Source: a virus. Taken from it: a DNA stretch of 64,000 bases. Where the stretch lies: the IMG/VR virus record IMGVR_UViG_3300038321_000157, positions 7,929 through 71,928 of that record; one strand, written 5' to 3'. Of this stretch, positions 176 to 58,479 are shown in pieces. The notes beneath the pieces were generated by a model. That model searched no databases. It was not told the DNA's origin and saw only the letters and a list, made by a program, of their open reading frames with translations. The position numbers and the translations under genes are program-made. Positions within the stretch are counted from its first letter, which is position 1. Every line of letters starts with the position of its first letter.

Positions 176-220
176 AGTAAAATCTAATTTTCATTTTAAA
201 AATAATTGGAGGTGTATATA

Positions 221-589
221 ATGTGTATGGCAACAATATTATCATTTAACTTACTTGAAACAGTGACTACAATAAGAAAAACAAGTAAAGATTTAAACGA
301 ACAATTATCTACCATAGATAAAACTATTTGTGATTTAGAACACGAAATTATGCTTAATAAATTTGATGTATGCAGAGGATATAAGAAATTCAAACAGCTT
401 CAAGATGCTCTGATAGAAAGACGTCAGATCAAAGACGAATGGGAGTTAATTCAACCTTTAATTGCTTATACTGGAACTATAGAAAAGAAAGTAAATGAAT
501 TACATAATACAATTAATGAAAGAGAAAGTAAATATGAGAATAGAAAATATACACCAAGAGTTTTGAAAGGAGAATTAAATGCTAGTTGA
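221..589 (+). CDS. Hypothetical coiled-coil protein
   Basis: ORF track 206..589; start moved to ATG 221 after GGAGGT at 208-213. Confidence 0.7.
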   Translation: MCMATILSFNLLETVTTIRKTSKDLNEQLSTIDKTICDLEHEIMLNKFDVCRGYKKFKQLQDALIERRQIKDEWELIQPLIAYTGTIEKKVNELHNTINERESKYENRKYTPRVLKGELNAS

Positions 590-1185
590 TTGAAACCTGG
601 ATTTTAGTATTTTTATATAGTTGGAAGAAAAAATTAAACATTAAATTAATCTTTTATGATTGGCCTATATATTTCCCGCTGATTTGTTTAATAGGATACA
701 TAGTTTTTGAAGTAATGATATTTAATGACCAATACTGGATTACACAATATGGAACTATTATTAAACCAGTAACTTTGCTTAGTTATTTTGGATTGATGTA
801 CAAATATAATCTTTATTATTCGCAGAATAAAAGTAAAAGTGAATTAGTAAGGTTTTTAATTTCTCCTTTTATAATAGGAATTATTTTCTTGGTTTTAGGT
901 TACATTTTCAACGGAATAGCGATTTTAAGCAACAATGGCCACATGCCGGTATTTCCCTCTTATACATATTTTACAAATTATACGGATATATCTAGTTTTA
1001 CTGAAGATAGTTTTTATATCTTAGGGGATCATACAAGTAAAGCGATTTGGGCTTGCGATTGTATAGACATTTTTTATTCCAATTTAAGTTTGGGTGATGT
1101 ATTCGTAAGAATATATGTTGCAATTTTGATTTATTTTTCGATAAAAAGAGTGAACGAAAAACATAAAATAAATATAAATGTGTAG
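586..1185 (+). CDS. DUF5317-like membrane protein
   Basis: Several hydrophobic segments; 'NGIAILSNNGHMPV' and 'LSLGDVFV' match the family pattern as recalled. Confidence 0.65.
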   Translation: MIETWILVFLYSWKKKLNIKLIFYDWPIYFPLICLIGYIVFEVMIFNDQYWITQYGTIIKPVTLLSYFGLMYKYNLYYSQNKSKSELVRFLISPFIIGIIFLVLGYIFNGIAILSNNGHMPVFPSYTYFTNYTDISSFTEDSFYILGDHTSKAIWACDCIDIFYSNLSLGDVFVRIYVAILIYFSIKRVNEKHKININV

Positions 1186-1205
1186 ACAAACAGCAATAAT
1201 TCTGC

Positions 1206-1235
1206 TAATATGTAATTAGAAAATATTACATATTA
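1206..1235. promoter_or_regulatory. Perfect 11-bp inverted repeat directly before the RBS of the receptor-agrD operon (candidate operator or hairpin)
   Basis: TAATATGTAAT (1206-1216), 8-nt spacer, ATTACATATTA (1225-1235); RBS AAGGAG follows at once. Confidence 0.5.
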
Positions 1236-1250
1236 AGGAGTTGTTGGGAA

Positions 1251-2051
1251 ATGCATAGTGATATATTTAATGCAGTAATGAATACCATATTCGTAAGTAT
1301 TCCAGAAAGTGTTTTATGGATTTTATTCGTATTTTTTCTCATGAAACGGAATGATTTATTGGATGTTTATAGATGGCAATATAATTTGAAACAAATTATG
1401 ATTGCGGCAATTCCAGTATCTATAAGTATAAATGTAATGAGATATATTCTACACGTAAATAATTTAATAAATTTTATTATTATAGAAATAATGATGATTA
1501 TATTAATTGTTTACATAATTAAAAAAAATAATTTTTTAAATGAAAAGATTAGTTATTTAAAAATAGTAATTTATGTAATGCTTGCGGATTTTATTATGAT
1601 TTTTACCACAGAAGGATTATTAGGTTTAATTATAATTCAAATGTTGCATATGAGTATAGATGTAATTAATAATAATATTGGATTAAATATAACTTTATCA
1701 CTTATACCAAGGACGGTACAAATTTTATTAATTAGTTTATGTATATATAAACAAAACGTTGGTAAAATGATTAATTATGTTGAATTAATTTTAAGAAATA
1801 AGATATTGTCAATATCAATGAGTGTGTTTTTAATAACAGTGATAATATCAAATTTTATTTTGCAAAGATTTGTTATGGCAACAAATTATTTAGATCATTA
1901 TATTATGTCAATTAAAATTGCTCTAATAGTATTAATGATAATAATCCCAATAATTATGATCGGGAGTTATATTTTTTCGATCTATAATCTTTTGTGGATT
2001 AATATAAAAACACAAAAAGAGAAAGATAATATGTTGAATGACATATATTAA
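1251..2051 (+). CDS. Polytopic membrane protein (about 7 TM) resembling an AgrC-type sensor domain, with no kinase domain
   Basis: 266 aa, hydrophobic almost throughout; no H-box or N/G1/G2 boxes; stop codon abuts the agrD RBS. Confidence 0.55.
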   Translation: MHSDIFNAVMNTIFVSIPESVLWILFVFFLMKRNDLLDVYRWQYNLKQIMIAAIPVSISINVMRYILHVNNLINFIIIEIMMIILIVYIIKKNNFLNEKISYLKIVIYVMLADFIMIFTTEGLLGLIIIQMLHMSIDVINNNIGLNITLSLIPRTVQILLISLCIYKQNVGKMINYVELILRNKILSISMSVFLITVIISNFILQRFVMATNYLDHYIMSIKIALIVLMIIIPIIMIGSYIFSIYNLLWINIKTQKEKDNMLNDIY

Positions 2052-2064
2052 AGGAGGTGAAATT

Positions 2065-2184
2065 TTGAAAAAATATCGTTTAATTGCAGGTTTAATAGGC
2101 ATCATAGCTATTGTTGGTGCTGGCATGGTGGCATCTCATACCCTATTCAACGAACCCCGCATCCCCTCCATGCTTTCTAAGTAA
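2065..2184 (+). CDS. agrD: AgrD-like cyclic lactone autoinducer propeptide MKKYRLIAGLIGIIAIVGAGMVASHTLFNEPRIPSMLSK (39 aa; not in ORF track)
   Basis: RBS AAGGAGGTGA then TTG; basic/hydrophobic leader, S-x-x-L-F core, x-E-P-x-x-P-x-x-L tail as in clostridial AgrD; AgrB lies 1.4 kb downstream. Confidence 0.85.
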   Translation: MKKYRLIAGLIGIIAIVGAGMVASHTLFNEPRIPSMLSK

Positions 2185-2210
2185 TTAAAATACCCTATCA
2201 ATACTCTAAA

Positions 2211-2248
2211 TTCTGTGCAGATTAATTTTTTAACTCTTCTGCACAGAA
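2211..2248 (+). terminator. 11-bp stem-loop after agrD (likely terminator)
   Basis: TTCTGTGCAGA (2211-2221) / TCTGCACAGAA (2238-2248). Confidence 0.55.
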
Positions 2249-2278
2249 TAATAATATAAAAATATCACCAAAAAACTA

Positions 2279-2307
2279 TTGCAATATTTTCCAGTAAATG
2301 ATACAAT
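2279..2307 (+). promoter_or_regulatory. Sigma-A-type promoter for the mazF-fusion/agrB operon
   Basis: TTGCAA-17 nt-TACAAT with extended TG. Confidence 0.7.
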
Positions 2308-2345
2308 GAAAATGTAAAATAAATAATATAGAAGGAGTGATTTAA

Positions 2346-3230
2346 ATGACAATGGCAATGAATATTTTGAATGAAGTGGAATTTAAAAAGAATATGGAAA
2401 ATGCAAAAACAGAATTATCAATTGCGCTAAAAATAGCAATTGGTCATCGTTCTGTTTCTCAGTTTGCAAGAGATTGTAGAATAGTAGATGTAACATTAAT
2501 CAATGATATTTTAAAAAGAAAGATTAATGTGTTACCTGAAAGAGATTTTTTAAGAATTGTTGAAAGAACCAGTGAAGGAAGGGTAACTTATACATATCTA
2601 TGTGAGATATGTGGTTACACCAAATGTGATCCTAATGAAGATAGGAGTTGGGCAAATTATCATCCAGAGCGTGGAAGTATTTATATGGCTGATTTAGGAT
2701 TGAATAACATGGATTCTGAACAAGAAGGGGTTAGACCTTGCCTTATTATTTCAAATAACATGGGGAATAAACATAGTAGTATAATAACAATTGCACCATT
2801 AACTTCAAAAAGGAAACATAGGTTGCCTGTCCATGTTGATTTAACAGTTCAGGATGGTATGAGACAGAATTCCATTATATGTTTAGAGCAGACTAGAGTG
2901 GTTTCTAAACGTAGGTTATTTTACAATGGTACACCCATGAAGATATTGAAATTAACTGAAGAAAAAATAAATGAAGTTAATATAGCTATTGAAAAGCAAT
3001 TCGGGATTATTGATTTAATGTATAATCCAGATCATGCATTTGAATTGGTAGGACAGATCGAAACACTTGAACATAATATAAAAACGAAAAAAATTAAACC
3101 TTCCTTCTTATCTGAATTGCTTAATGGTAAACGTAAGGAATTAGTTACGTATTGTAAGAAATATAATAGGAACGAAAAGACGATTATTAATAATTACACA
3201 GGGACAAGAGATTTTGTGCCTGTAAATTAG
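2346..3230 (+). CDS. mazF: N-terminal HTH-like domain fused to a PemK/MazF endoribonuclease, with a C-terminal helical extension
   Basis: RGSIYMADL..SEQEGVRPCLIISNNMGN..IAPLTS..LPVHV..SIICLEQTRVVSKRRL aligns by eye with B. subtilis EndoA, catalytic Arg (VRP) and Thr (LTS) kept; N-terminal 'AIGHRSVSQFARDC' is XRE-like. Confidence 0.85.
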   Translation: MTMAMNILNEVEFKKNMENAKTELSIALKIAIGHRSVSQFARDCRIVDVTLINDILKRKINVLPERDFLRIVERTSEGRVTYTYLCEICGYTKCDPNEDRSWANYHPERGSIYMADLGLNNMDSEQEGVRPCLIISNNMGNKHSSIITIAPLTSKRKHRLPVHVDLTVQDGMRQNSIICLEQTRVVSKRRLFYNGTPMKILKLTEEKINEVNIAIEKQFGIIDLMYNPDHAFELVGQIETLEHNIKTKKIKPSFLSELLNGKRKELVTYCKKYNRNEKTIINNYTGTRDFVPVN

Positions 3231-3244
3231 GAGGTTGATAATAA

Positions 3245-3544
3245 ATGATTGATGAGTTAGAAATTAAAAGTTTTGATGCTAGGTTTGGAACCAGATCAAA
3301 AGTGTTTCAATGCACTAATACGATTGTTATAGAAACACCTTTAGACAGTTGGATTGTAAAAGTTACGAACAGACAAACCAGACCACTATGTTTATTGCAT
3401 AAGAACAAATTTGGAAGAATAAATAAATACCACATTCAATCTTGGAAGACAAAAATGTTTCATGTCTATGATTCTATTTACAAACATAAAGGGATGCATC
3501 TTGTAGGTGCACCCAATACATATAAAGGTAGTCAAATAAAATGA
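3245..3544 (+). CDS. Hypothetical protein translationally coupled to agrB
   Basis: GGAGG RBS; ATGA overlap with agrB. Confidence 0.7.
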   Translation: MIDELEIKSFDARFGTRSKVFQCTNTIVIETPLDSWIVKVTNRQTRPLCLLHKNKFGRINKYHIQSWKTKMFHVYDSIYKHKGMHLVGAPNTYKGSQIK

Positions 3545-4134
3545 AAAAATATTTTCGGTACTTATACACCTTAAAATACATTAAATTACTCGCATATATG
3601 TCAGCAAGATCATTACAATTATCACGTAACGAGTCTCATAAACACAAATATATGTATTATTATGGATTTAATATTTTATATGGAGCAATTAATAAAGGAA
3701 CACTCCTTATACTGGCAGGATTATTATTCCATGCGTTACCCCAAATCCTTGTTACTACACTTGCGTTTATGTCACTTAGGGGTTTTATAGGGGGATTACA
3801 TTTTGATTCATATACAAAATGTGCCTGGATTTCATTGTTATGTTTGGTTTCAATAGGGTTATTAGCAAAATATATTCCTTACAATAATATTATAAATTTA
3901 TGTGTGTTTATTTATCTGTTAGTTATTGCTTTCATTTATGCACCAGTTGAACATAAAAATAGACCACTAACAGATAAGAAAAAAATAACTTTTAAATATG
4001 TATCCATTGTAATAATTTTTGCACTATATAGTGCTCAGGCCATAGTTAATAACGATAATATTAGTAATTGCATCATGTACGGTGTTTTATTATCGGGCAT
4101 TATCGCATTGCCAATATTTAAGAAAGTCAAATAA
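3541..4134 (+). CDS. agrB: Accessory gene regulator B-type membrane peptidase/cyclase
   Basis: YGFNIL, LRGFIGGLH..S..KC (catalytic His and Cys), IYAPVEHKNRPL; multi-TM. Confidence 0.9.
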   Translation: MKKYFRYLYTLKYIKLLAYMSARSLQLSRNESHKHKYMYYYGFNILYGAINKGTLLILAGLLFHALPQILVTTLAFMSLRGFIGGLHFDSYTKCAWISLLCLVSIGLLAKYIPYNNIINLCVFIYLLVIAFIYAPVEHKNRPLTDKKKITFKYVSIVIIFALYSAQAIVNNDNISNCIMYGVLLSGIIALPIFKKVK

Positions 4135-4237
4135 TGTCGTAAATTGTCTATAAGTTTAAATTGTAAAATCGAAATAATAGTTTTAAAATAAATTTATGGT
4201 TAATTTTGTTTATAATGTTTTAATTAAAAAATTTTAG

Positions 4238-4266
4238 TTGTATTTATTTGCCACAATGGTTATAAT
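4238..4266 (+). promoter_or_regulatory. Sigma-A-type promoter
   Basis: TTGTAT-17 nt-TATAAT. Confidence 0.55.
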
Positions 4267-4338
4267 AAACAGAACAGTTGTTCTATATTAACGATGGAGT
4301 GATGTTAGAGGAATAGTGTAAAGGAGGCTTTATAATTA

Positions 4339-5379: not shown

Positions 5380-5418
5380 ATTAAATCACTAAAATAAAAT
5401 TAACACATGTATATTTGC

Positions 5419-5470: not shown

Positions 5471-6799
5471 GTGTCAATAATGGTTGGAAACAAAGAAGAA
5501 CAATTAAAAAATAAACTAAAAAATGTTATCCGTGAATTTGGGTATGACAATAGTACAAAGCAGTTTGTAATGGATGAATTTAAATTACGTAATTTATCAT
5601 CCTTAAGAGCTGCTTGGGTTTTTTCTGAAAATCTTGATCTGGATACTCTAACAGAATCAGAAGATGATGCCCAATTTTTATATCTATTTTCTTTTGCTCT
5701 TAATAAAGCATTAAAAGAAAAAGATATAAATATTTTGAATGATTATCAGAGTTATTTTACCAGTGTTGAAATTAGTGAATGGGAAAATTATAAAGAAGAA
5801 AAAGAATCTGAAGATATTTTCCCTTATAATTTAAAAGATGTACAAGAAATTGTTCCTGGTCAACAATGGCAAACTAAACTTACTATACAACAATTTAATG
5901 AATTATATAATGTATTACTTTGGAATCCCAACTCACAAAGGGGATTTAAGGTAACGAAAAAAGCAATTAGAATTAATGAAAATCCTCTAAAGGTTAAAGA
6001 AATAGCAGAGAATATACTTGCAGGAACATATTATCCTGACCATATTAAAATTAATGTTGTAAAAGACGAAAATAAACCTATTTATAATCCTAAAACGAGA
6101 ATGTTAACTTTAAGGGAAGGGACAAAACTTAATATTTGGGACGGTCAACATCGAAAATCTGCAAGTGCATTAGTCTTGGTAGAAAATCCCGATATAGATT
6201 TTACATGGCCTATAGATATCACAAATCTATCAGAGATTGAAACTCACAATGCGATGGTACAAATCAACAAACAAAGTCCAATTAAACTTGATGTTATATC
6301 TACTAAAGACTATTCCAAAAATGAAAATTTAGTGCTTGATAAGATTATGGATAGTCGTGGAGATTTAGCAAGCGCAACAAAAGATACAGATGCATTTGTA
6401 AAGTCAGATCGTGCTTTAACCACAAAACCTATCCTTGCCGAAGCTATTAAAGATAATTACGATAATTTAGATTCAGCTATGCAACGTGATGAAGTTGCTA
6501 AATGGATAGTTGAGTTTACAAACTACCTCATGGGTGTCTACTCAGATGAGTTTATTGTCAATCCTTATGAAGTAAAGAAAACTTCCTATATTAATAACCT
6601 AAATATGTTCTATGGATATATTGCTCTTTCCGCAATATTGAAAGATAATAAAAATTGGAAAGAAATTCTTAAACAAAAAATTAACTCAATTGATTTTTCC
6701 GTAGACAATCCTATGTGGCGAGAAATAGGGATTATCAAAGAAAACAAAATTGGTAAACCTACAAAGAATAAACTCTATAAACTTTTTATGGAGGTGTAA
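5471..6799 (+). CDS. DGQHR (DndB-like) domain protein, SPbeta YopQ-like
   Basis: IWDGQHR motif; lies directly upstream of the MrpR-like gene as in SPbeta. Confidence 0.75.
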   Translation: MSIMVGNKEEQLKNKLKNVIREFGYDNSTKQFVMDEFKLRNLSSLRAAWVFSENLDLDTLTESEDDAQFLYLFSFALNKALKEKDINILNDYQSYFTSVEISEWENYKEEKESEDIFPYNLKDVQEIVPGQQWQTKLTIQQFNELYNVLLWNPNSQRGFKVTKKAIRINENPLKVKEIAENILAGTYYPDHIKINVVKDENKPIYNPKTRMLTLREGTKLNIWDGQHRKSASALVLVENPDIDFTWPIDITNLSEIETHNAMVQINKQSPIKLDVISTKDYSKNENLVLDKIMDSRGDLASATKDTDAFVKSDRALTTKPILAEAIKDNYDNLDSAMQRDEVAKWIVEFTNYLMGVYSDEFIVNPYEVKKTSYINNLNMFYGYIALSAILKDNKNWKEILKQKINSIDFSVDNPMWREIGIIKENKIGKPTKNKLYKLFMEV

Positions 6800-6802: not shown

Positions 6803-7837
6803 TTGATGATTGAATTTCAAATTGACTCTGAAATTAAGCAAGAATATTTACAAACAAAACCAACTGCAACCGCAGAATCAGATGCTTTTATACTTCGTGA
6901 TTTTGATAATTATGAAGTACAGGTTGGTAAACAAGTTTACAATCTTAACATTTCTGAATTAAATGAAATGTTTGCTACATTGCGTAATTCTTCTAAACGC
7001 ACAGCACAAAAAAATAAATCAATATTAACCAACTACATTGATTTCTGTGTTGCAAAGAAAATTGTTCCCCATATGGAAAACAGAGCAAAATATATTGATG
7101 TTGAAAAATTTGTGTCTCGACAAGCACTATTGAACAAATTTATTTCAAAAGAAAAAGTAAGAGAATATGTAAATCTCTTATATAATTCACAAGACCAATT
7201 ACTCTTATGGTTGTTATTTATAGGAGTAAGGGGTAGAACTACTGAAGATGGCACTATGGAAGAGGTTATAAATTTAACAATAGATGATGTTAATTTTAAA
7301 GAAAATATGCTTACTCTTAGACAGAATGATGGTAAATTCCGTTTATTAGATGATGTACCTGACCACATTATAGATTTAATTAGAGAGACATACGAGCAAG
7401 AATATTATATCGAGAATAATGGTGAGATGACTAATAATCCTAGAGTGCCTAACCCTAGAAAAAGTATTATTAACAAAACTGGTGAATCAAAAACAAGAGA
7501 AACAATAGATAGATATATTTTTAGAATACCAGGAAAGAGTAAATTTGAAAAATTTAGTCCTGCTTTGCTTAACTCACGGATGATTAAAATTCAAAAGGTC
7601 GTTGACAACCGATACGTAACCTGGAGCAGTTTGTATTTTTCAGGTATGTTGCAATCGTGTATAGATATTTACAAAGAGAAGGGTGAAATCACTGATAGAG
7701 ATTTTGATAACATCTGTCTTAGATATAATTACGGAGTATCAGAAGAACCAATTGGTAAGTTAAATATTAAACAAAGTGCATATTGGTTCGTTTTAAAAGA
7801 TTTGTTTTTGCAATACAAGGAGTTACTACAATTATGA
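6803..7837 (+). CDS. MrpR/YopR-like master repressor (tyrosine-recombinase fold with degenerate catalytic motif)
   Basis: SAM-like N-terminus; 'QDQLLLWLLFIGVRG..EEVINLTIDDV' recombinase box I; box II reads 'TWSSLYFSG' with no H-x-x-R. Confidence 0.75.
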   Translation: MMIEFQIDSEIKQEYLQTKPTATAESDAFILRDFDNYEVQVGKQVYNLNISELNEMFATLRNSSKRTAQKNKSILTNYIDFCVAKKIVPHMENRAKYIDVEKFVSRQALLNKFISKEKVREYVNLLYNSQDQLLLWLLFIGVRGRTTEDGTMEEVINLTIDDVNFKENMLTLRQNDGKFRLLDDVPDHIIDLIRETYEQEYYIENNGEMTNNPRVPNPRKSIINKTGESKTRETIDRYIFRIPGKSKFEKFSPALLNSRMIKIQKVVDNRYVTWSSLYFSGMLQSCIDIYKEKGEITDRDFDNICLRYNYGVSEEPIGKLNIKQSAYWFVLKDLFLQYKELLQL

Positions 7838-8240: not shown

Positions 8241-8636
8241 ATGAATATAGGTCAAAAAATCAATCAATTATTTGAACGATCTGGATATAAAAACTATGCT
8301 GATTGGGGTAAGGCAATGGGGTTGCCTGGAGATTGGTTACTTGATCTTAAAAAGAAAGATACTATAAAGACTGTAGATATTACACGTTTAATAACTATTG
8401 CTGAATATAATCAAATTACTCTTGATGAACTATTAAAAGACAATAATGATAATTATATCCTTGACATTAATAGCGGCATGGAAGATAATGACATATATAA
8501 GCTATTAGGTCAAATTCAAACGCAATTAGAAGAAAATGAAGTAAAATTTAATGGTTTTATAATGAATAAGGAAAGTAAAGAAATAACTTATGATGTAATA
8601 GACGTATTAAAAGGATTGATTGGTAATAATTTATAA
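8241..8636 (+). CDS. XRE-family HTH regulator (YopS-like position)
   Basis: MNIGQKINQL..NYADWGKAMGL..ITRLITIAEYNQITLDELL. Confidence 0.7.
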   Translation: MNIGQKINQLFERSGYKNYADWGKAMGLPGDWLLDLKKKDTIKTVDITRLITIAEYNQITLDELLKDNNDNYILDINSGMEDNDIYKLLGQIQTQLEENEVKFNGFIMNKESKEITYDVIDVLKGLIGNNL

Positions 8637-10571: not shown

Positions 10572-10766
10572 TTGGATCAAATGTTAAATAGTATTCTGTA
10601 TTTTAATGTTGCAACAACTTATATTGAAGGTAATCTTGTTAATTTTAAAAATCATATTTATATGGTTAAATTTTCGGAAAGAAAAACGCATACGAATATT
10701 ATTACTGGTTATCTTCCACCTGAATACCCTATTGTAGAAAATGAATATTGGATATTGCGTGAATAA
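10572..10766 (+). CDS. Hypothetical protein
   Basis: ORF with GGAGG RBS. Confidence 0.55.
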   Translation: MDQMLNSILYFNVATTYIEGNLVNFKNHIYMVKFSERKTHTNIITGYLPPEYPIVENEYWILRE

Positions 10767-10820
10767 AGTTAAAACAAAAGAATCATTTCATAATTATTTT
10801 AGAAATAGAAAGGAAAATAT

Positions 10821-11940: not shown

Positions 11941-12187
11941 GAAGGAGGAAGTATGAATTATTCAACTACTAAGAAAATTAGGAAATATAAAGATTGGTGA
12001 TAAAACATTCAAAGAAAAAGATATAAGAATAAAAAATGAAATAAAACAGTTACAAGAATCTTTACAAAGAAATATTGATATTTATCAAAATGATATGGAA
12101 GTAAATCTTACACTAATTAGTATATAAAATCGTTATAAATGTTTGATTTTACATTAAATGTATAATATAATAATAAAGGAGAATAAT

Positions 12188-12607
12188 ATGTTTCGTAAAT
12201 TAAAATCACTATGGAATAAACATCAATATAGTATTGAAGAAAATACATATATAAACACCCATAAATTTATTTGGGGAATTAAATCAGCAAGTGATCTGTC
12301 TTATGGTGAACCAGATTTATGTACAATGAATGATATTGATATTGTTTATGATAAAGAAAGTAAAATGTATTCACTTAGTATTGAAACTATATATCAATTT
12401 ACCAATAATCAAGAAGGAGAGAAATTTTATATACAACATTTATTTAATAAATTGACGGAATGGATGGACAGTAAGGGGTATGATACTAATAGGGAATTAG
12501 ATATTTATGATGTTTTTACCAGGGGAATAAATATTAATACTGAGTTTGAATCAATAGAAGAATTGTATGCTACTTTAAAGTTTTTGGTTAAAGGATTTTG
12601 TGATTAA
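12188..12607 (+). CDS. Hypothetical protein
   Basis: Start moved to ATG 12188 after AAGGAG. Confidence 0.7.
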   Translation: MFRKLKSLWNKHQYSIEENTYINTHKFIWGIKSASDLSYGEPDLCTMNDIDIVYDKESKMYSLSIETIYQFTNNQEGEKFYIQHLFNKLTEWMDSKGYDTNRELDIYDVFTRGININTEFESIEELYATLKFLVKGFCD

Positions 12608-12621
12608 AAAAGGAGGCTAAT

Positions 12622-12888
12622 ATGAAAATAGAAAGACAATTTGAAGAAAACGAATGGGTAAAAGAAATTACAGGGAAAGAATTTAGAGAATCAGGTGCAT
12701 TATGGTTTGTTAATTCTATTTTACATCTGTTTGGTATGGCAATTACTTGGAATCCAGATACGGATGAATTAAAAGCTTCTATTGTACGGTATAGGGGTTT
12801 TGACAACAAGTATAATGATAAAGGATATAAGATGCTTAGTAATTATTTAAAAGATAATATAATTGAATTAGAAAAGGATTGTGATTAA
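12622..12888 (+). CDS. Hypothetical protein
   Basis: AGGAGG RBS. Confidence 0.7.
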   Translation: MKIERQFEENEWVKEITGKEFRESGALWFVNSILHLFGMAITWNPDTDELKASIVRYRGFDNKYNDKGYKMLSNYLKDNIIELEKDCD

Positions 12889-12947
12889 ATCATTATAAAA
12901 TCCAGCTTTTATAATGTTATAAAAATAAATATAGGAGGAAGTAAAAA

Positions 12948-14029: not shown

Positions 14030-14239
14030 ATGAGAGTATTTGAATTAAGTGATACCCAAATAGAAAAAATTAAACAATGGGATAATGCTGAAACTGGTCA
14101 TAAATGCAATGCAAGTAAACGTGGTGACGTTACGGGTGCAAGATTGAGTTATACGTTTATTCCTACTGGATTAGATGATGTTGTCAAAGTTGAATGTGAA
14201 TGCGGTGAGGTATTAGATGTTACTGAAGGTTGGGATTAG
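14030..14239 (+). CDS. Small Cys-containing hypothetical protein
   Basis: GGAGG RBS; HKC...CECG. Confidence 0.7.
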   Translation: MRVFELSDTQIEKIKQWDNAETGHKCNASKRGDVTGARLSYTFIPTGLDDVVKVECECGEVLDVTEGWD

Positions 14240-14285
14240 AATCGTAATCAAATAACCCTTTTAACTCAATATAGAAAGGAGAATT

Positions 14286-14468: not shown

Positions 14469-14518
14469 TTTCAACCAAATTTCTCTTTTGTGTACTTTTT
14501 GAAAGGAAGAATAAATAT

Positions 14519-14704
14519 ATGAAAGTAAAAGACTTCATAAATAAATTAGAAGATATTGGATATAATGACGATACCGAAATAGTTTTTGATTTGAAAAATG
14601 AAGATGGTGAAACATATTCAGATTATTATTGTCAATCAGTATATACCCATATGCCTTTTGTACTTAATGCAATAGGAATTGAGATTGATAGGGTTTACAA
14701 ATAA
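14519..14704 (+). CDS. Hypothetical protein
   Basis: AAGGA RBS. Confidence 0.65.
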   Translation: MKVKDFINKLEDIGYNDDTEIVFDLKNEDGETYSDYYCQSVYTHMPFVLNAIGIEIDRVYK

Positions 14705-14803
14705 TTAAATCCCAATTTAATTTTGGACACGATTTATATTACTATTGCTATTTTTATGTTATTGTATTAAAATTATAATATAAATATACAGAAAGGAGAT
14801 AAT

Positions 14804-15939: not shown

Positions 15940-16046
15940 ATATTGTATTTTATAAAAAAGCAAAATAAAATTAGCAAAATATAAATTTGTTTAAAAAGTT
16001 TTGGCCAGTACAAAAACTGTATTCTATAATAATTTGGAGGTAAGAT

Positions 16047-16734: not shown

Positions 16735-17118
16735 ATGGGAAAACAAATAGATAGAATTGATATAGTTTTTGAAAATTGTGAAGTAATACAAGTTCCGATG
16801 AGTGATGTTAGATTTATATGGTTAGGAGATATTAAAGAAAGATTATTTATAAATAATATTTGTTATCGAAAAAATGACGGTTTTGAATTGGACAAAAGTG
16901 CAACGCAAGCAAAATTAATAATTAAGAATAAACCAGAATATGAAAGAGTTAATAAATATAGTGACATTACTCATATTGATTTTATGAGAAATAATAAGTC
17001 TGTATCATACATAGGAATAAAATGGTTGGGAGAATCAGAATATCATAATGTTGGTCAAGAAGTAGAAATAGTAAAGGATGAAATATTTATTAATATAAAT
17101 ATTGAAAATGAAGATTAA
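16735..17118 (+). CDS. Hypothetical protein
   Basis: AAGGAG RBS. Confidence 0.7.
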   Translation: MGKQIDRIDIVFENCEVIQVPMSDVRFIWLGDIKERLFINNICYRKNDGFELDKSATQAKLIIKNKPEYERVNKYSDITHIDFMRNNKSVSYIGIKWLGESEYHNVGQEVEIVKDEIFININIENED

Positions 17119-17212
17119 CATAAAATTCTAGATTTATAATGATTATGGTAAAATTGGATGCCTAAAGATTGGGATTCTTAGATTATAAATTATTTTAAAT
17201 GAGGTTTATAAT

Positions 17213-18356: not shown

Positions 18357-18511
18357 AATATTGGACTTATTCAGCTAAAGATACTAACGCTTATATTTGG
18401 TTTGATGGACAGAGTAGATATATTAAAATATCTAAAAACGATTTAAGAAAAATGCTAGATTGGATAGATACTGATAAAAAGTTGAAAATATTAGATTCTA
18501 GGAATGCCTAA
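18344..18511 (+). CDS. 55-aa hypothetical protein (not in ORF track)
   Basis: MGQIEYWTYSAKDTNAYIWFDGQSRY...; overlaps the previous stop. Confidence 0.5.
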   Translation: MGQIEYWTYSAKDTNAYIWFDGQSRYIKISKNDLRKMLDWIDTDKKLKILDSRNA

Positions 18512-18584
18512 AGAATGGGATTCTTATTAACACATTTTTTAAATTGTAATTAAAATAAAAATATAAATAAGGAGGTAAAAACAA

Positions 18585-19379: not shown

Positions 19380-19476
19380 AAATCAAAAATTATAAACACC
19401 GTTAAAATGGGATTCTTAATCAGTAAAAACATAACCAAATTTGAGATTTATCACATTATTTAAGAAGGGAATAATT

Positions 19477-19824: not shown

Positions 19825-19865
19825 ATCAACACAAAAACTATGTTTCATAATGATTGGAGGTAAAT

Positions 19866-20024: not shown

Positions 20025-20143
20025 TAAATTCTCTATTTGGTGCAGAAATGAAGTCCGAAATTTGGGCGTTTGTGAGGCATGATTTTCTGAAAAAAATCTA
20101 TTAAAAGCATAAAATAAAAATAAGGAGGATAATAATACATAAA

Positions 20144-20875: not shown

Positions 20876-20967
20876 TTTATAAACGCCTATATAATTGGAT
20901 TTATAATTCACAAAATCATGATGAAATTTTTGTTTGATTAAAAGTTATAGAAAGGAGAGTCAAAAAC

Positions 20968-21651: not shown

Positions 21652-21869
21652 ACAAATAGGAACAAAATCATTATAAAAGTCTGATTTCATCACAATATTG
21701 TAAAAATCAGTATTTTACGGGTTTCCAACGAATGCACACAAATAAAACCCAATATATAGGGATTAAATAGGTATATCGGTTGGTTTTAACCCGTAAAAGT
21801 ATAAAAATATTTGAATCAAATGCGTCTTTGGTAATGTTATTAAAATAAAAATATAAAGAAGGTGATAAT

Positions 21870-22459: not shown

Positions 22460-22488
22460 TTGACAAATTTTTATTAAAAGTATAAAAT
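22460..22488 (+). promoter_or_regulatory. Sigma-A-type promoter for ligA
   Basis: TTGACA-17 nt-TAAAAT. Confidence 0.65.
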
Positions 22489-22514
22489 AAATATACAAAC
22501 GAAAGGAGGAAGTT

Positions 22515-41514: not shown

Positions 41515-41543
41515 TTGACAAATACCACAACTGAATATATACT
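41515..41543 (+). promoter_or_regulatory. Sigma-A-type promoter upstream of the candidate ncRNA
   Basis: TTGACA-17 nt-TATACT. Confidence 0.75.
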
Positions 41544-41549
41544 ATTACT

Positions 41550-41640
41550 AGAGAGCGAAGGGATTGAATAAATCAGTTCCATGCCCAATAAAAACGGAAT
41601 CCCTAACCGTGGGATAAACATGGGAGTTTGCTCTCTTTTA
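41550..41640 (+). ncRNA. Candidate structured small RNA with a pseudoknot, family unassigned
   Basis: Closing stem 41551-59/41627-35; inner stems 41577-83/41619-25, 41584-86/41611-13, 41594-97/41607-10; loop AAUCCC pairs with GGGAUU 41560-65; U-run follows. Confidence 0.65.
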
Positions 41641-41690
41641 TAATTAATAAAAGGCAGGTTTTATCCAAACTGTAGAAAGGAATTATTTTT

Positions 41691-41873
41691 ATGAGAGATA
41701 TAAATAGAATCGAACCACTATTAAATGATCTTAAAGAGTTATGGTTAAAATATCCAGATTTAAGATTATGTCAATTACTTGCTTGGATCGCAAATGATAG
41801 TGGTTGGACTAATAATGATTTATTTTATTTAGAAGATGATGTAATTGCAGAGCAAATTAAAAAGATATTATAA
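41691..41873 (+). CDS. Hypothetical protein
   Basis: MRDINRIEPLL..W..YPDLRLCQL; AAGGA RBS. Confidence 0.7.
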   Translation: MRDINRIEPLLNDLKELWLKYPDLRLCQLLAWIANDSGWTNNDLFYLEDDVIAEQIKKIL

Positions 41874-41904
41874 ATTTGGGATTTGGTAACGAAAGGAGTT
41901 AAAT

Positions 41905-42194: not shown

Positions 42195-42704
42195 ATGTTA
42201 CCAACAATAAAACAATACAAATTAAAACCAGATATAACCAAGGAAGATTTACTCAACGCAGGATTTAAGGAAGGTGGTTGGCAAAAAGAATTTAATGATC
42301 CTAAAGTAAATTATTATATACCACTCATTGATGAAATAAGTTTACATATAGAAATAGAAACAAACACAATGCAATTTGACTCCATTGATAACGTTTTAAT
42401 ATTAGATGAAGATTTTGGTCAACCTTATGGAGCATTTTATAGAGATATAGAATTTGAATATTTAAACAAAGCTATAGATAAGTATAATATAATTATGGAT
42501 GGATTAATAGAAAAGGGTATATTGCAATATACGATCGAAGAAGCAACCAAACAATATTATAATAATGAAATATCTCTTGAAGAACTTATGAAGTATATCA
42601 ATGAAAGTGATGAAGGAGATAAGGAAAGACGTAGGATTGAAAAAGAATTTTATGAGATATTTAAAGATGATTTTCCAGAACATTTGAATATAGTTATTGG
42701 TTAA
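42195..42704 (+). CDS. Hypothetical protein
   Basis: AGGAGG RBS. Confidence 0.7.
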   Translation: MLPTIKQYKLKPDITKEDLLNAGFKEGGWQKEFNDPKVNYYIPLIDEISLHIEIETNTMQFDSIDNVLILDEDFGQPYGAFYRDIEFEYLNKAIDKYNIIMDGLIEKGILQYTIEEATKQYYNNEISLEELMKYINESDEGDKERRRIEKEFYEIFKDDFPEHLNIVIG

Positions 42705-42742
42705 AATATCTGTTTTGTTCAAATATTGAATGGAGGTTAAAA

Positions 42743-49503: not shown

Positions 49504-49657
49504 AAATGAATTAGGTTTTTATCCTTCATGGTTAACCTGCTACAGACCCGACCTCTTCTATAAAAACCAATGTAATAAATGTAATTTTCGTGATTATGTC
49601 TATTGTAAGAATAGTGAAAATTATAAAAATATGTTAAAAGAGATGAAAAACACCTAA
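49469..49657 (+). CDS. Small Cys-containing protein
   Basis: ORF; a GGAGG RBS favours ATG 49481. Confidence 0.5.
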   Translation: MEVLMEIPNLPKNELGFYPSWLTCYRPDLFYKNQCNKCNFRDYVYCKNSENYKNMLKEMKNT

Positions 49658-49772
49658 ATGCGGTATATAGGCATTATCAAATGCTTACAAAGCCCAATAT
49701 ATAGGCATTTATGGCAAGTTGTGATAAAAGAGACATTTTGTGTTGAAATTAAATATTTGAAAGGAAAAATGT

Positions 49773-53946: not shown

Positions 53947-54165
53947 TTGGAAGTAGAAGAAATTAAGGGAGAAATAATTATAAATAATAATATAATACCA
54001 GAAGTTTATACTGTTGCCGAAATACAAAAATTATTAAAGATATCTAAAAATGTTGCGTATGATCTTATTAAAGAAAATTTATTTCCTGTGATAAAAATTA
54101 AAAGTGTTTTTAGGATACCGAAGAAAAGTTTTCATGAATGGCTTGATAATTTAAAAACTGAATAA
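53947..54165 (+). CDS. xis: Excisionase-like HTH_17 protein
   Basis: YTVAEIQKLLKISKNVAYDLI..FP..KI...FRIPKKSFHEWL; adjacent to attP. Confidence 0.85.
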   Translation: MEVEEIKGEIIINNNIIPEVYTVAEIQKLLKISKNVAYDLIKENLFPVIKIKSVFRIPKKSFHEWLDNLKTE

Positions 54166-54221
54166 TATAATATGGGAAAGTAAAAGAAAATAACTGTAAG
54201 GGGTAAGTTAAACCTAATTTC

Positions 54222-54535
54222 AGGTAGACATTAGGTAGACATACTCCTTATTTTATTGTAAAATACCATATAATTTTATATAAGAAAGTAAAAGATTATA
54301 AGGGAAATAAAAGTTTAATTAATACTGATATATTAGGGATTACAAAAGATTATATAAGAAAGTAATTGAGTATAAAAGAAACACAAGGCAACAGTTCGAC
54401 TCCCCCCGCCTCCACCAATGAAAATACCGAAACACAGGACTTCGTTAAAATAAATCAACTTCTAGGTAGACAAATAGGTAGACATTTAGAAAATTAACTG
54501 ATAAAATATTGCCATAAAATCTTTCTAGGTAGACA
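54222..54535. repeat. Five direct AGGTAGACA repeats flanking the attP core (integrase arm-type sites)
   Basis: Copies at 54222, 54233, 54464, 54476, 54527. Confidence 0.85.
54394..54417 (+). other. attP core: 3' end of tmRNA (ssrA)-type RNA, GTTCGACTCCCCCCGCCTCCACCA
   Basis: T-loop TTCGA, 3' T-stem, acceptor strand CGCCTCC (implies G3.U70) and ACCA; no 5' half upstream; lies between xis and int. Confidence 0.85.
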
Positions 54536-54566
54536 TTTTAAAATTACTAATGAAAGAAGGATTAAA

Positions 54567-55715
54567 TTGGCAAGAAAAAAAGTCGAAAAGAATATTGCAT
54601 ATGATGATGAGAAAAATTTATATTATGTAAATCTTGATTATGGTAAAAATGACTCAGGTAAAAGGATTAAATCAACAAAAACATTCACAAAAATTCAAGA
54701 CGCAAGACAAGCATTAAAAGAATTTGAAGCTAATAAAACTAAAAACACTATTGTTTTCCCATCTTCTATTAAATTTAAAGATTATGCTACTTATTGGTTA
54801 AATGATATTAAATCATTAAAATGTGAAGAAACTACACTCTATGGGTATAGAAATATAATTAATAATCATCTTATCCCATCATTAGGTAATCACAAACTTC
54901 AAGATTTAAAACCAACAACTATTAATAAATATTTTAAAAGAAAATATGAAGATGGATTAAGTAAAAATACAGTAAGAAAGCATTATGATTTATTAAAAGA
55001 TATATTAAAAAATGCTGTGAATGAAGATATATTAGTAAAAAATCCTTTAAATAAAATAGAACCTATTAAACCTAATAAAAAAGAAGCGAAATATTATACT
55101 AAAGAAAATTTAGCAAAATTATTTGATATTATTAAAAATGATCGTATGGAAATAGTTGTTAAATTGGCAGGTTTATTAGGATTAAGAAGAGAAGAAATTG
55201 CAGGACTCAAATGGAAGAATATAGATTTAACTAATGATGAAATTACTATAGCAGAAGTGAGAATACAAGCAGGTAAAACAGTTAAAACTTTTCAACGCAC
55301 TAAAACAGAATCTTCTTATAGAACACTTCATATACCGGAAGATATTAAAAACATACTTTTAAAAATTAAATCTGAGCAAGAAGAAAGAAAAAAGATTCTA
55401 AAAGATTCTTATTATAAAGAAGGTTATGTTATCGCATGGGAAGATGGAAGTCCATATAGACCAAATTATTTAGGTGATTTATTTACAAAAATAATCAGAG
55501 ATAATAATTTACCATCTATAGGATTACATGGATTAAGACATACGTTTGCGAGTATAGCAAATGATATGGGTGTTAATTTATATGATATTAGTAAAGCATT
55601 AGGGCATAGTCAAGTTGGGACTACTAGTGAAATCTATACACATTTATTTGATAAAGCACATAAAAAAGCTGTTAATAAAGTTGCTGATGTTTTTAAAACA
55701 GAAGAAAACAAATAA
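54567..55715 (+). CDS. int: Phage tyrosine integrase
   Basis: SAM-like domain; GLRREE; HGLRHTFA; LGHS....T..IYTH. Confidence 0.95.
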   Translation: MARKKVEKNIAYDDEKNLYYVNLDYGKNDSGKRIKSTKTFTKIQDARQALKEFEANKTKNTIVFPSSIKFKDYATYWLNDIKSLKCEETTLYGYRNIINNHLIPSLGNHKLQDLKPTTINKYFKRKYEDGLSKNTVRKHYDLLKDILKNAVNEDILVKNPLNKIEPIKPNKKEAKYYTKENLAKLFDIIKNDRMEIVVKLAGLLGLRREEIAGLKWKNIDLTNDEITIAEVRIQAGKTVKTFQRTKTESSYRTLHIPEDIKNILLKIKSEQEERKKILKDSYYKEGYVIAWEDGSPYRPNYLGDLFTKIIRDNNLPSIGLHGLRHTFASIANDMGVNLYDISKALGHSQVGTTSEIYTHLFDKAHKKAVNKVADVFKTEENK

Positions 55716-55749
55716 AATAAGGAGTGAAATTAATCACTCCTTATTTTAT
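55712..55749. terminator. Bidirectional terminator between convergent int and holin
   Basis: Perfect 16-bp inverted repeat ATAAAATAAGGAGTGA / TCACTCCTTATTTTAT, 6-nt loop. Confidence 0.8.
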
Positions 55750-55877
55750 GCCAAAAGCCAAAAATTGACAAATGTTAAAATTCACTTTTACAAACTCCGT
55801 TTTTCTTTGATTTACTTCCATTTACTCCGTTTTTCAAAGCAAAAATCATGATAAAATACTTGTTTTATGTTGACTTC

Positions 55878-56231
55878 TTATTTAGCAACCCAATTCTCAC
55901 CGTAAGCATCTTTAATACCTCTCAAAGCACTCTCAACTAATCCTTCAATCTCATCTTCATTTATTTCAATACCTTTTTCATATAATCTATCACAAACCCA
56001 ATTTACAGCTTGTTCTAATTTATCTTTCCCATGTAAATCAACATATGCCTGTTCAACAAATTTTACAGCATCATATGCTAAACCTTGTTTTAATTTTAAT
56101 TCTTGCTCAATCTTAGTTATTTTTTCAGTCCCAATCTTTTTCTTAATTAAAGCAATCCCATAACTAATAAAAACTAACGCAAGAACATAAACAATATCAC
56201 TAATAATTTTTATAATTAAATCTTGATACAT
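55878..56231 (-). CDS. Holin (LL-H-like)
   Basis: N-terminal TM; AVKFVEQ..GKDKLEQA..IEGLVESA; follows the endolysin. Confidence 0.8.
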   Translation of the reverse strand: MYQDLIIKIISDIVYVLALVFISYGIALIKKKIGTEKITKIEQELKLKQGLAYDAVKFVEQAYVDLHGKDKLEQAVNWVCDRLYEKGIEINEDEIEGLVESALRGIKDAYGENWVAK

Positions 56232-56348
56232 ATAGTACCTCCTTTTTATATTATATTTATAATCTGTTACTCAAACAAAATATAATTATTCCTAACAACC
56301 ATATTACTAACCCGAAAACCACTTCCATCGTTCCAACATAATAATCAC

Positions 56349-57266
56349 CTACTTTACAATTGCTGTTTTAGTATCATTTACCCACTCAACTTTTTTACCT
56401 AATGCTTCCGCAATTTCTCTTAAACTACCAAATGTTTTATCTTCAATAAGAATTCCATTTATTTTTTTATTTTGGACTTCAATATTTACTTTAGGAAAAT
56501 TTTCTTTACTTACTGTTGCTGTTGAAGTATTATTATCCCATTCAATTGATCTATTAATAGAATCACAAAAACTACGAAGTTCAACAAAAGTTTTATTATT
56601 TATTAAATAAGCATTTAATTGTCTATCATCAATTTTAACTTTAGTTTCTAACAAATCTTCTTCATCTCCTCCATGTTCTTTATATTGAACACCAAAATAT
56701 TTACATATAGCTTTACAAATTGCTTTTGCTAAAACTAATTGATGTGCATCATCATAAACCCATATTTCTTCATCAGGATTAGATATAAAAGCACATTCAA
56801 TTAAAGATACAGGTTTCTTAATTGCTCTAACTACTCCAATAGATTTACCAACATTTTTACTACCCCTATTAGTTAATCCTGTAGCATTTACTACTTCATT
56901 TACTAATAATTCTGCTAATTTTATATTATTATTTAGCAATCCATTATATTGCGAATATAAACTTTCAACTCCATGAGCAGTTTTATTTACAGCGGAATTA
57001 AAATGAATTGATATAGCAATATCCGCATTAGAATTATTGCTAAATGCAATTTGGTTATTAACATCTTGCTTGGTATTTTTTGCCCCACCACAAGCAATAT
57101 TTGTATTTCTACTTAAATTTGATTTTATTCCATTTATATTTAATAAATATGCTAATTTTAAAGCAACCGCTAGAGCACCATCACATTCTCTAGTACCTTT
57201 ACTTCCACAAGCACCAGGATCACCGCCGCCATGCCCAGGAATTATATCAACTTTATATTTATACAT
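56349..57266 (-). CDS. Endolysin: Amidase_3 N-acetylmuramoyl-L-alanine amidase with two C-terminal copper-amine-oxidase-stalk-like repeats
   Basis: IIPGHGGGDPGA..E; SIHFNS; LIECAFISN; repeats TFVELRSF..IEWD and TFGSLREIAE..VEWV. Confidence 0.9.
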   Translation of the reverse strand: MYKYKVDIIPGHGGGDPGACGSKGTRECDGALAVALKLAYLLNINGIKSNLSRNTNIACGGAKNTKQDVNNQIAFSNNSNADIAISIHFNSAVNKTAHGVESLYSQYNGLLNNNIKLAELLVNEVVNATGLTNRGSKNVGKSIGVVRAIKKPVSLIECAFISNPDEEIWVYDDAHQLVLAKAICKAICKYFGVQYKEHGGDEEDLLETKVKIDDRQLNAYLINNKTFVELRSFCDSINRSIEWDNNTSTATVSKENFPKVNIEVQNKKINGILIEDKTFGSLREIAEALGKKVEWVNDTKTAIVK

Positions 57267-57588
57267 TATCTAATTCACCTTCTTTATTATTATCTTCTTT
57301 ATTAATTACATTTTTACTTAAATTTATTTTTTTACTTTTATTAAAAATACAATTAATAATATTTTCAGCAGAACTTCCTCCAAAATAAAAACACAAGATT
57401 ATTATTACTTGTGCACTAAGTATTTTATAAAATTCTATATCAAAATAATCCAAACTTTTTATCATCATTTTTTTACAAGCAATAAAAACTGAATAACCAA
57501 AAATTAAAATAAGAATCATTGCAATTGTCTCTTTAAATGACACTCCATCGTTCCACCAATTTGAAACCTTTTGTTTTATTTTACCCAA
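57259..57588 (-). CDS. 2-TM membrane protein of the lysis cassette (holin-like)
   Basis: Two hydrophobic helices; position. Confidence 0.6.
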   Translation of the reverse strand: MGKIKQKVSNWWNDGVSFKETIAMILILIFGYSVFIACKKMMIKSLDYFDIEFYKILSAQVIIILCFYFGGSSAENIINCIFNKSKKINLSKNVINKEDNNKEGELDNV

Positions 57589-57598
57589 ATAAATCACC

Positions 57599-58051
57599 TT
57601 ACTTTAATATGGAACTAATCCACACTCCAAAACCCATAGATAACCCCATCATAATTAAATTTTTTATAATATCTGGTATTTTAATAGTATTATCTTTATT
57701 TATATTTTTAACATCATTCTTAACTTCTTTTATCTCTCCTTTTAAATCAGAAACACTTTTTTCTGACTCTTCAAATTTATGATTCATATTAATTAAAGAA
57801 GTGTTCATTTGAGTCAATGTATCACTATGTTGTTTTAATAATTCATCACGATCCTTATTACTTTCTAATTGTTGTTTAGATATAGTTTTTAATTCTGCTA
57901 AAGTTACATTTATAGAACTTAAATTATCTACTTTCCCTTCAAGATCATTTAGCCTGTGGTTCGCGACCTTGATTTTTTCATCTAACATATCAAATTCTTT
58001 TTCACATATTTTTATTTGCTCACAATCATTAGATTTTACCAACAACAACAC
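57599..58051 (-). CDS. Coiled-coil protein with C-terminal TM (XhlA-like)
   Basis: ANHRLNDLE coiled coil; hydrophobic C-terminus; position. Confidence 0.6.
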   Translation of the reverse strand: MLLLVKSNDCEQIKICEKEFDMLDEKIKVANHRLNDLEGKVDNLSSINVTLAELKTISKQQLESNKDRDELLKQHSDTLTQMNTSLINMNHKFEESEKSVSDLKGEIKEVKNDVKNINKDNTIKIPDIIKNLIMMGLSMGFGVWISSILK

Positions 58052-58162
58052 TTCCTTTGCAAATCATCTCCTTGCATGATATAATCTAATAAGGATAGTC
58101 TAAATTGTTCCTTTAGATTATCTACACAATAGGGTAGGGGGAAGGAGTGTTCTCTACCCTAT

Positions 58163-58306
58163 TTATTTTAATGTTTTAATAAACTTTAAAATATCATTTA
58201 AACATTTTTTATATCCTCTTAACCATTCATAAGTAAATTCATTATAACTATCGATAAGTTCCAACAATTTTTGTTCAATCCATTCTGTTAATTTTTGAAA
58301 TGGCAT
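58163..58306 (-). CDS. 47-aa hypothetical protein (not in ORF track)
   Basis: AAGGGA RBS; MPFQKLTEWIEQKLLEL...; hairpin 58128-58163 follows. Confidence 0.45.
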   Translation of the reverse strand: MPFQKLTEWIEQKLLELIDSYNEFTYEWLRGYKKCLNDILKFIKTLK

Positions 58307-58479
58307 TTATCATCCCTTTCTTTCTAATTTTATAAATTTCCAAATTATTGTATATTTTTGCAAAAATATAAACGCCTAGATTTCGGCGTTTCTAAGGGGT
58401 AAAATCAACGCCAAATTAAAGTTTTATCACGATATTATAAATCAAAATTAATATATATATTTATATTAATATTTTAATG

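Follow-up and report, generated by a model that had tools for sequence, protein, structure and literature searches.

The stretch of DNA analyzed here (the window, 64,000 nucleotides [nt] in length) corresponds to bases 7929-71928 of the 139,278-bp virus record IMGVR_UViG_3300038321_000157 of IMG/VR, whose GC content is about 26%. The subject is a short A/T-rich dyad, ATAAAA-N6-TTTTAT, which recurs between the small genes of the accessory arrays of this genome. A first-pass annotation had described about 30 such palindromes with a 13-6-13 geometry and had read them either as an operator array for an MrpR-like repressor or as boundaries at which gene cassettes are shuffled. Copies of the element were counted in the window and also in the whole genome.

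Several genes identify the record as that of an SPbeta-like phage with a clostridial host. A gene of the MrpR/SroF family is located at 6803-7837 on the plus strand, directly downstream of the gene for a DndB-like protein (5471-6799). An NAD-dependent ligase, RecJ-like and RecD2-like proteins, a Pol III alpha subunit and NrdD are also encoded. The genes lie on the plus strand until about 55.8 kb and are followed by a minus-strand block that begins with the genes for a holin and an amidase. The metagenomic homologues of the MrpR-like protein number about one hundred; some are on contigs of 100-150 kb, and one belongs to an assembly labelled Clostridium sp.

The exact core ATAAAA-N6-TTTTAT occurs three times in the window, against 0.33 copies expected. 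With up to two mismatches, the window as a whole holds 97 copies, which is not significantly more than the 85.6 expected. For intergenic DNA, the expectation was obtained from dinucleotide-preserving shuffles of each spacer. The intergenic DNA of the window holds 9 copies with at most one mismatch (1.5 expected) and 28 copies with at most two (12.7 expected), and that of the genome holds 17 (3.3 expected) and 61 (30 expected), respectively. The core is enriched over the A/T-rich background between genes but not over the window as a whole. The count of 28 copies against 12.7 indicates that roughly 15 copies in the window are above chance and that about half of the 30 elements first reported are chance matches, the earlier figure being an overcount.

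The robust minimal signal is AAA-N6/7-TTT. In intergenic DNA this pattern was found 76 times with six central bases and 86 times with seven, against 51.7 expected for each, and it was depleted at spacings of 3 to 5 and 9 to 10 bases on either side of this sharp peak. The reverse order, TTT followed by AAA, showed no spacing peak in intergenic DNA. Beyond the AAA and the TTT, the flanking positions carry 0.1 to 0.5 bit each. The two halves have independent, roughly mirror-image preferences, Y-M-AAA and TTT-K-R, and the 6-bp spacers vary from copy to copy. An expectation-maximization motif search of intergenic DNA returned the Shine-Dalgarno sequence (SD) first and then a GCC-N8-GGC palindrome; the ATAAAA-N6-TTTTAT element was never returned.

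The 13-6-13 geometry applies to only a part of the copies. At least 11 of 13 symmetric positions were paired at six intergenic places in the window against 0.7 expected, a count that includes unrelated palindromes, whereas the 13-nt arm consensus was not enriched as a half-site in the genome (126 matches at up to two mismatches against 110 expected). Thus the geometry holds for about six window copies and not for the rest. The example quoted in support of it, at 12888-12919, was confirmed, with 12-nt arms that differ at one position.

The placement of the copies was as the first reading had described it. The A-run starts between 3 nt before and 11 nt after the end of the stop codon, and the T-run ends 15 to 17 nt ahead of the next SD. 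In the spacers of the plus-strand accessory arrays, AAA-N6-TTT was found 59 times (33.9 expected) and AAA-N7-TTT 63 times (34.0 expected), with z values of 4.2 to 4.7. The minus-strand late-gene spacers of the same genome showed no peak (17 against 18.7 and 23 against 18.5, respectively). Enrichment was also absent from the replication operon, where spacers are few, so that the reported contrast between the accessory arrays and this operon was borne out. The enriched arrays consist of small unannotated genes, here as well as in relatives. Between 8.9 and 22.6 kb, strong sigma-A-type promoters are few and terminator-like sites were not found, indicating that the copies lie between the cistrons of polycistronic units. 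The N6/N7 peak was repeated independently in the relatives L009, L011 and L012, whose MrpR proteins are 69-72% identical to that of the window (pooled, 53 against 25.7 and 55 against 25.8). In more distant contigs bearing MrpR, the peak was weaker or absent; L019, for example, had 7 copies against 7.9 expected.

A functionless origin of this pattern would be spacer composition, with A-rich sequence after stop codons, U-rich sequence before SDs and spacers of uniform length. The very low information content, the whole-window count at chance level and the narrow length range of the array spacers are all consistent with such a by-product. A compositional gradient, however, would not give a sharp peak at N6/N7 flanked by depletion, and the peak is missing from late-gene spacers of the same genome. 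Copies that are identical, spacer included, were moreover found between unrelated genes (see below). Spacer composition as the sole cause is therefore considered quite unlikely.

Mosaic junctions were studied by comparison with relatives. A megablast search of phage records and two protein-seeded scans of viral contigs found no relatives, and the three hits of an exact-pattern scan of viral contigs were unrelated. The loci L004 and L007 are on contigs that carry MrpR proteins 93% and 72% identical to that of the window, respectively. Between the window and these two loci, blocks of 98-99% identity are broken by replaced or inserted single genes. One such module, 12603..12897 on the plus strand, contains a single open reading frame (12622-12888) that is absent in L004 and L007, and an 11-nt direct repeat, TTGTGATTAAA, in which the stop codon is included, lies on either side of it. 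Its right-hand junction, 12897/12898, falls within the left arm of an element copy: the sequence past the AAA is shared, and the left arm and the upstream gene occur only in the window. The inserted gene and the gene upstream of it both end in Cys-Asp-stop. At the junctions 9210 and 16012-16016, the spacer and the right arm go with the downstream gene.

Contigs of four other metagenome runs were compared with the window over two stretches, and further junctions were added. Those at 14489 and 21687 lie just past the T-run, those at 21817 and 49727 are at the A-run, and others are at 41887, 54308 and 55786. The replaced segment next to the 21687 junction ends at 21817, right before another AAA-N6-TTT, and the module 41640-41887 was swapped in three metagenome runs. 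In all, 8 of 25 intergenic junctions (12898, 14489, 21687, 21817, 41887, 49727, 54308 and 55786) lie in the element or at most 3 nt from it, against 3.4 expected. This is an enrichment of about 2.4-fold (binomial P = 0.014) in a hand-collected list drawn from L004, L007 and the metagenome contigs. The remaining junctions are at stop codons, SDs, start codons and the end of a different palindrome. Within the element, crossover points were found before the AAA, after the AAA, in the spacer and after the TTT, spread over about 20 nt.

Identical 12-mers made up of AAA, spacer and TTT were shared by eight pairs of sites that lie between genes nonhomologous on both sides and in different phages. The identity in these pairs reaches 15 to 19 nt, and about 0.75 pairs would be expected by chance, as estimated from the spacer composition. 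Homology on one side only was seen at 12897 (downstream) and at 14476 (upstream). The scattered crossovers, unconserved arms and differing spacers suggest exchange through short homology rather than a site-specific reaction. The proposal that the elements are cassette boundaries was half supported: a modest excess of gene gain and loss junctions was found at them, but the dif/Xer or integron form of the proposal was not borne out.

The accessory arrays of the relatives also contain IS605/IS200-type TnpB insertions, one of them with a resolvase (L007, 6488-7649; L012, 2622-4150; L019, 11259-13313), as well as free-standing HNH genes. These are additional sources of rearrangement in such arrays.

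Use of the copies as dif/Xer-type or attC-type sites, by the recombinase encoded at 58480, the integrase encoded at 54567 or the MrpR-like protein, would allow gene cassettes to be captured and excised. The dyad around a 6-bp center, the copies at the 3' ends of single genes and the enrichment of junctions would fit this, and the one-gene insertion 12603-12897 ends within a copy. In addition, the Xer-type recombinase encoded at 58480 is apparently active, judging from its intact catalytic motifs. Its gene has the lysis cassette (holin, 55878-56231; amidase, 56349-57266) on one side and large tail-fiber-like genes on the other, and the copy reported just past its 3' end was found at about 58410-58427, 50 to 70 nt beyond the gene. 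Xer/Cre-type exchange requires identical centers in both partners, and it would be blocked by the centers of the element, which differ between copies. The arms are not conserved either, and the crossovers are spread over some 20 nt with no fixed bond. As for attC, no long folded attC-like palindrome is present and no IntI-type integrase is encoded; the 58480 protein gave only a weak, partial match to IntI4. The 54567 integrase has sites that are probably its own. The spacer 54165-54567 upstream of it contains a tRNA/tmRNA-like 3' end (...GTTCGACTCC...CCACCA), which was not called as a gene by ARAGORN, and five AGGTAGACA repeats, and these features are probably the attachment site and the arm-type sites of the integrase. 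Published work describes the MrpR family as lacking the catalytic tyrosine (PMC10516654; 10.1101/2025.11.27.690993). Without conserved arms, shared centers or a fixed crossover bond, a dif-type or integron-type reaction is very unlikely. A possible role of the 58480 recombinase is in an inversion or resolution system; several palindromes surround its gene (58094-58473).

The regions after stop codons did not fold more stably than shuffled sequences (mean z of -0.27). Covariation was examined in copies picked only by the AAA-N6-TTT pattern and the position after a stop codon. The combinations at stem position 5, namely TA (14), CA (11), CG (10) and TG (10), were as expected for independence, with no avoidance of C-A mismatches, and no preference for Watson-Crick or wobble pairs was found beyond the three A-T pairs. 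No Rfam family matched the element. A selected RNA or single-strand hairpin is unlikely because there is no pairing constraint and the folds are no better than those of shuffles. An RNA hairpin or terminator was rejected on these results, together with the lack of a terminator-like site between 8.9 and 22.6 kb.

These data also bear on an RNA-level intercistronic signal, which could be a site processed by an endoribonuclease of host or phage, or an A-rich/U-rich platform by which reinitiation at the following SD is adjusted. The fixed position relative to stop codon and SD within polycistronic units, the order specificity (AAA then TTT, and not the reverse) and the restriction to one temporal class of genes are in its favor. 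However, the lack of pairing preference, the unremarkable folding and the lack of an Rfam match argue against it, and such a signal is considered improbable. A look for RNA sequencing runs that contain this phage found none.

A sigma-A promoter in which the T-run and the TATAAT-like right arm serve as the -10 box was likewise unsupported. The -35 positions are not conserved, G is common at the second -10 position and transcription would begin within the SD. Promoter-like matches were not enriched.

The protein encoded at 6803-7837 was indeed MrpR-like. It has a recombinase fold and a Pfam MrpR_N_CB match, and among solved structures 9rd5 is its best relative, with the SPbeta MrpR structure 8a0a next, so that it is a true member of the MrpR/SroF family. 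MrpR binds the SPBRE repeat at about ten SPbeta promoters (PMC10516654). When SPBRE was rederived from seven SPbeta promoters, it proved to be an oriented box of about 20 nt that hardly varies, contains an ATACA-N7-TGTAT dyad and may directly adjoin the SD. For SroF, of the same repressor family, a 2025 preprint reports that the monomer binds DNA and reads 24 of 26 bp, the central 6 bp among them, and that the boxes recognized differ from one SroF to another (10.1101/2025.11.27.690993). The dyad studied here is degenerate, its 6-bp spacer is free and it lies after stop codons inside operons, which does not fit the features of an MrpR/SroF operator. The suggestion of an MrpR operator array was thus unsupported, the SPBRE/SroF box being long (15-26 bp), asymmetric, near-invariant and located at the promoters of lytic operons, a short way ahead of the SD.

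A separate repeat of the genome is a better candidate for this operator. It is oriented and about 24 nt long, and consists of ATTAAAA, one base and a 15-nt A/T-rich core. With at most one mismatch, eight copies of the core were found, all of them on the sense strand and none antisense (0.43 expected). The repeat lies directly upstream of SDs at operon heads on both strands and overlaps TTGACA/TTGACT-17-TAAAAT promoter matches. Its perfect copy contains a 5-7-5 dyad, as does SPBRE. From position, copy number and geometry, the 24-nt repeat is likely to be the SPBRE counterpart and a candidate MrpR/SroF box. The GCC-N8-GGC palindrome (AATGCC-N8-GGCATT type, its center often TATATATA) was the strongest non-SD motif in the unbiased intergenic search. 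It has about 20 copies in the genome and often precedes the 24-nt promoter repeat. Changes in its left half are not compensated, so that a protein site or a weak terminator is probable. Three families of intergenic repeats can thus be told apart in this genome, one of which, the 24-nt repeat, stands out as the likely MrpR/SroF-type operator.

Repression through the dyads themselves was considered as well. In a stoperator-like operator array, a phage protein bound to the dyads would silence the accessory arrays in the lysogen. The binder could be the MrpR/SroF-like 6803 protein or a dimeric Cro/CI-type regulator, for example the weak helix-turn-helix protein encoded at 8241-8636. Half-sites of the form ACAAAA / TTTTGT with a 6-bp center recall operators of dimeric helix-turn-helix repressors. 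A likeness of the arms to the Fur box or the IHF consensus was considered and dropped. The half-sites vary independently without RNA covariation, which is the look of a protein site in duplex DNA, and the copies are limited to early/accessory arrays, which must be off in a lysogen. They occupy short spacers at stop codons, as do L5-type stoperators (PMC9283540). The low information of 0.1 to 0.5 bit per flanking position, the unenriched 13-nt arm, the approximately 50 chance occurrences of AAA-N6-TTT in intergenic DNA alone and the presence of a better operator candidate in the 24-nt repeat count against an operator array. MrpR as the binder is further disfavored by the monomeric reading of a long asymmetric box by SroF, by the near-identity of the SPBRE copies and their position at promoters, and by L019, which has an MrpR homologue yet no enrichment of the element. 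An operator array is therefore an unlikely explanation. It is quite improbable that the dyads are a Firmicute-phage counterpart of stoperators, present at almost all cistron boundaries in the accessory arrays, that is read by DNA shape (a pair of narrow minor grooves separated by one helical turn), silences the arrays in the lysogen and doubles as in-register homology for exchange.

A PemK/MazF-like gene and AgrB (586-4134) are located upstream of the DndB-like/MrpR pair, and this order is kept in many relatives (L009, L011, L015 and L019). Bacillus SPbeta phages carry arbitrium at this position.

Features of the window: copies of the dyad, other intergenic repeats and the Xer-type recombinase gene (window coordinates)
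Feature	Position	Strand	Remarks
Dyad, weak copy with 2 mismatches	177..194	+	2 nt past stop codon at 175
Dyad, ACAAAA-N6-TTTCAT	10774..10791	+	8 nt past stop codon at 10766
Dyad, left arm extended	12135..12152	+	
Dyad, best copy, near-perfect 12-nt arms, spacer TCCAGC	12888..12919	+	Starts at stop of gene 12622-12888
Dyad, identical in relatives L004 and L007	13991..14008	+	Overlaps stop codon at 13994
Dyad	14247..14264	+	8 nt past stop codon at 14239
Dyad, CCAAA-N6-TTTTG form	14474..14492	+	Junction against relatives and metagenomic contigs at 14489, directly past T-run
Dyad	14704..14721	+	Overlaps stop codon at 14704
Dyad	17120..17137	+	2 nt past stop codon at 17118; followed by GCC-N8-GGG type palindrome 17157-17176
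Dyad, right arm extended	19831..19848	+	
Dyad, left arm extended	20921..20938	+	
Dyad, left arm extended	21673..21690	+	Junction at 21687 directly past TTT
Dyad, exact core	41647..41664	+	27 nt ahead of start codon at 41691
Dyad	42701..42718	+	Overlaps stop codon at 42704
Dyad	49724..49741	+	Mosaic junction at 49727, within left arm
Dyad, exact core	55851..55868		Convergent spacer between integrase side and holin gene
Dyad	58410..58427	-	Downstream of Xer-like recombinase gene
24-nt repeat, perfect copy	22471..22495	+	Overlaps TTGACA-17-TAAAAT promoter at head of replication operon (22460-22495)
24-nt repeat, other core starts	9017, 11657, 14774, 20108, 26078, 43549, 50542		
24-nt repeat, past window end	96725(-), 108255(-), 108463(-), 115346		
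GCC-N8-GGC palindromes	17157-17176, 18503-18522, 19395-19414, 20051-20070, 20882-20901, 21745-21764, 49657-49709, 58371-58390		About 10 more elsewhere
Xer-type tyrosine recombinase gene	58480..59469	-	R, HxxR and Y motifs aligned to XerA/XerD

Two further observations concern structured sequence in the window. A strong, bidirectional terminator-like palindrome at 55712-55749, directly past the integrase stop codon, has 16 of 17 arm positions paired and a 4-nt loop, and its outer arms are ATAAAA...TTTTAT, identical in letters to the element core. The GC-richer, structured-looking noncoding stretches at 30294-30614 and 41515-41640 had no Rfam match at the gathering score.

The element is tentatively interpreted, at somewhat less than even probability, as the core of a standard intercistronic linker in the accessory arrays of this phage lineage that serves as short homology for module exchange. 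The linker would run from the stop codon through a short A-run, 6 to 7 variable bases and a short T-run to the SD about 15 nt further on. The dyad would thus be the within-operon joint between cistrons of early, ORFan-rich accessory arrays, while operon heads would have the 24-nt oriented promoter repeat instead, often after a GCC-N8-GGC palindrome. Cassettes that both end and begin with a common A/T-rich dyad would offer 10 to 20 bp of in-register homology to the general recombination of phage or host, so that single-gene modules could be inserted, lost or replaced without damage to neighboring genes. Recombination would use the element as homology, and neither a dedicated recombinase nor a repressor would be needed. 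The varied crossover positions fit, since homology-driven exchange predicts them.

Several points weigh against this interpretation. The enrichment of junctions is modest (2.4-fold) and comes from 25 hand-collected junctions, many of which are located elsewhere. The core is very short, and microhomology alone may not be sufficient to account for the sharp 6- to 7-nt spacing, which may be explained by protein binding to duplex DNA or by an RNA-level signal. Selection may also act on a more direct molecular role of the element, for instance protein binding or DNA shape. The element itself has no promoter or working terminator, unlike the PeSL cassettes discussed below, and no excised circles or recombination intermediates were observed among the assembled contigs of DNA runs.

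Among known systems, site-specific recombination sites resemble the element in outline. Sites of the attC type are 57 to 141 bp long and fold as single-stranded DNA, with conserved 7-bp cores (RYYYAAC / GTTRRRY) and extrahelical bases, and they are recombined by IntI at one fixed bond. Like the element, attC is an imperfect palindrome at the 3' end of a single-gene cassette, near or overlapping the stop codon, and marks the cassette boundary. The element differs in being about 12 to 26 bp long and free of pairing constraint, in a genome that encodes no IntI-type integrase. The core sites of dif/Xer and lox type have conserved inverted arms of 11 to 13 bp, to which recombinase monomers bind, and centers of 6 to 8 bp that are identical in both partners, with exchange at fixed bonds on either side of the center. 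They share with the element the inverted arms around a center of about 6 bp, but the arms of the element are not conserved and its centers differ.

Two repressor-bound repeats are also comparable. In cluster A mycobacteriophages, stoperators (L5 gp71 type) are strongly conserved, asymmetric 13-mers oriented with transcription, and their binding by the repressor, which blocks elongation, is proven (PMC9283540, PMC6550527). As with the element, dozens of copies per genome are found in short spacers at gene boundaries within operons. The copies of the element, however, are degenerate symmetric dyads with a free center. The SPBRE/SroF box, like the element, is dispersed through an SPbeta-like genome in which a repressor of the MrpR family is encoded (PMC10516654; 10.1101/2025.11.27.690993). 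It is a near-invariant, oriented, promoter-associated box that abuts the SD, has about 10 copies and is read over 24 bp by a monomer, whereas the element is degenerate and symmetric, follows stop codons and is several times more numerous.

Of the described analogues, the PeSL (promoter-early stem-loop) cassettes of T4-like phages come closest. They contain a strong sigma-70 promoter and a working terminator hairpin, and mini-circles, which arise when adjacent modules recombine, have been demonstrated (PMC2839356, PMC4122927). In both cases, short repeated intergenic modules flank ORFans in hyperplastic regions, and the indel and replacement junctions of close relatives fall within the module at variable points. 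Exchange by homology with no dedicated recombinase is common to both as well, if the interpretation given above for the element is correct. The element differs in that it lacks a promoter and a stable hairpin and lies inside operons; the promoter and the GC-containing palindrome are separate repeats at operon heads in this genome, and an SPbeta-like clostridial phage is unrelated to T4 in lineage and host. SPbeta-like clostridial phages have barely been studied, and they carry long arrays of small orphan genes with fast turnover. If the interpretation holds, a shared linker would explain how these arrays are remodeled without a dedicated recombinase, and the PeSL principle, described in T4-like phages with Gram-negative hosts, would extend to a temperate lineage of the Firmicutes that is unrelated to them.

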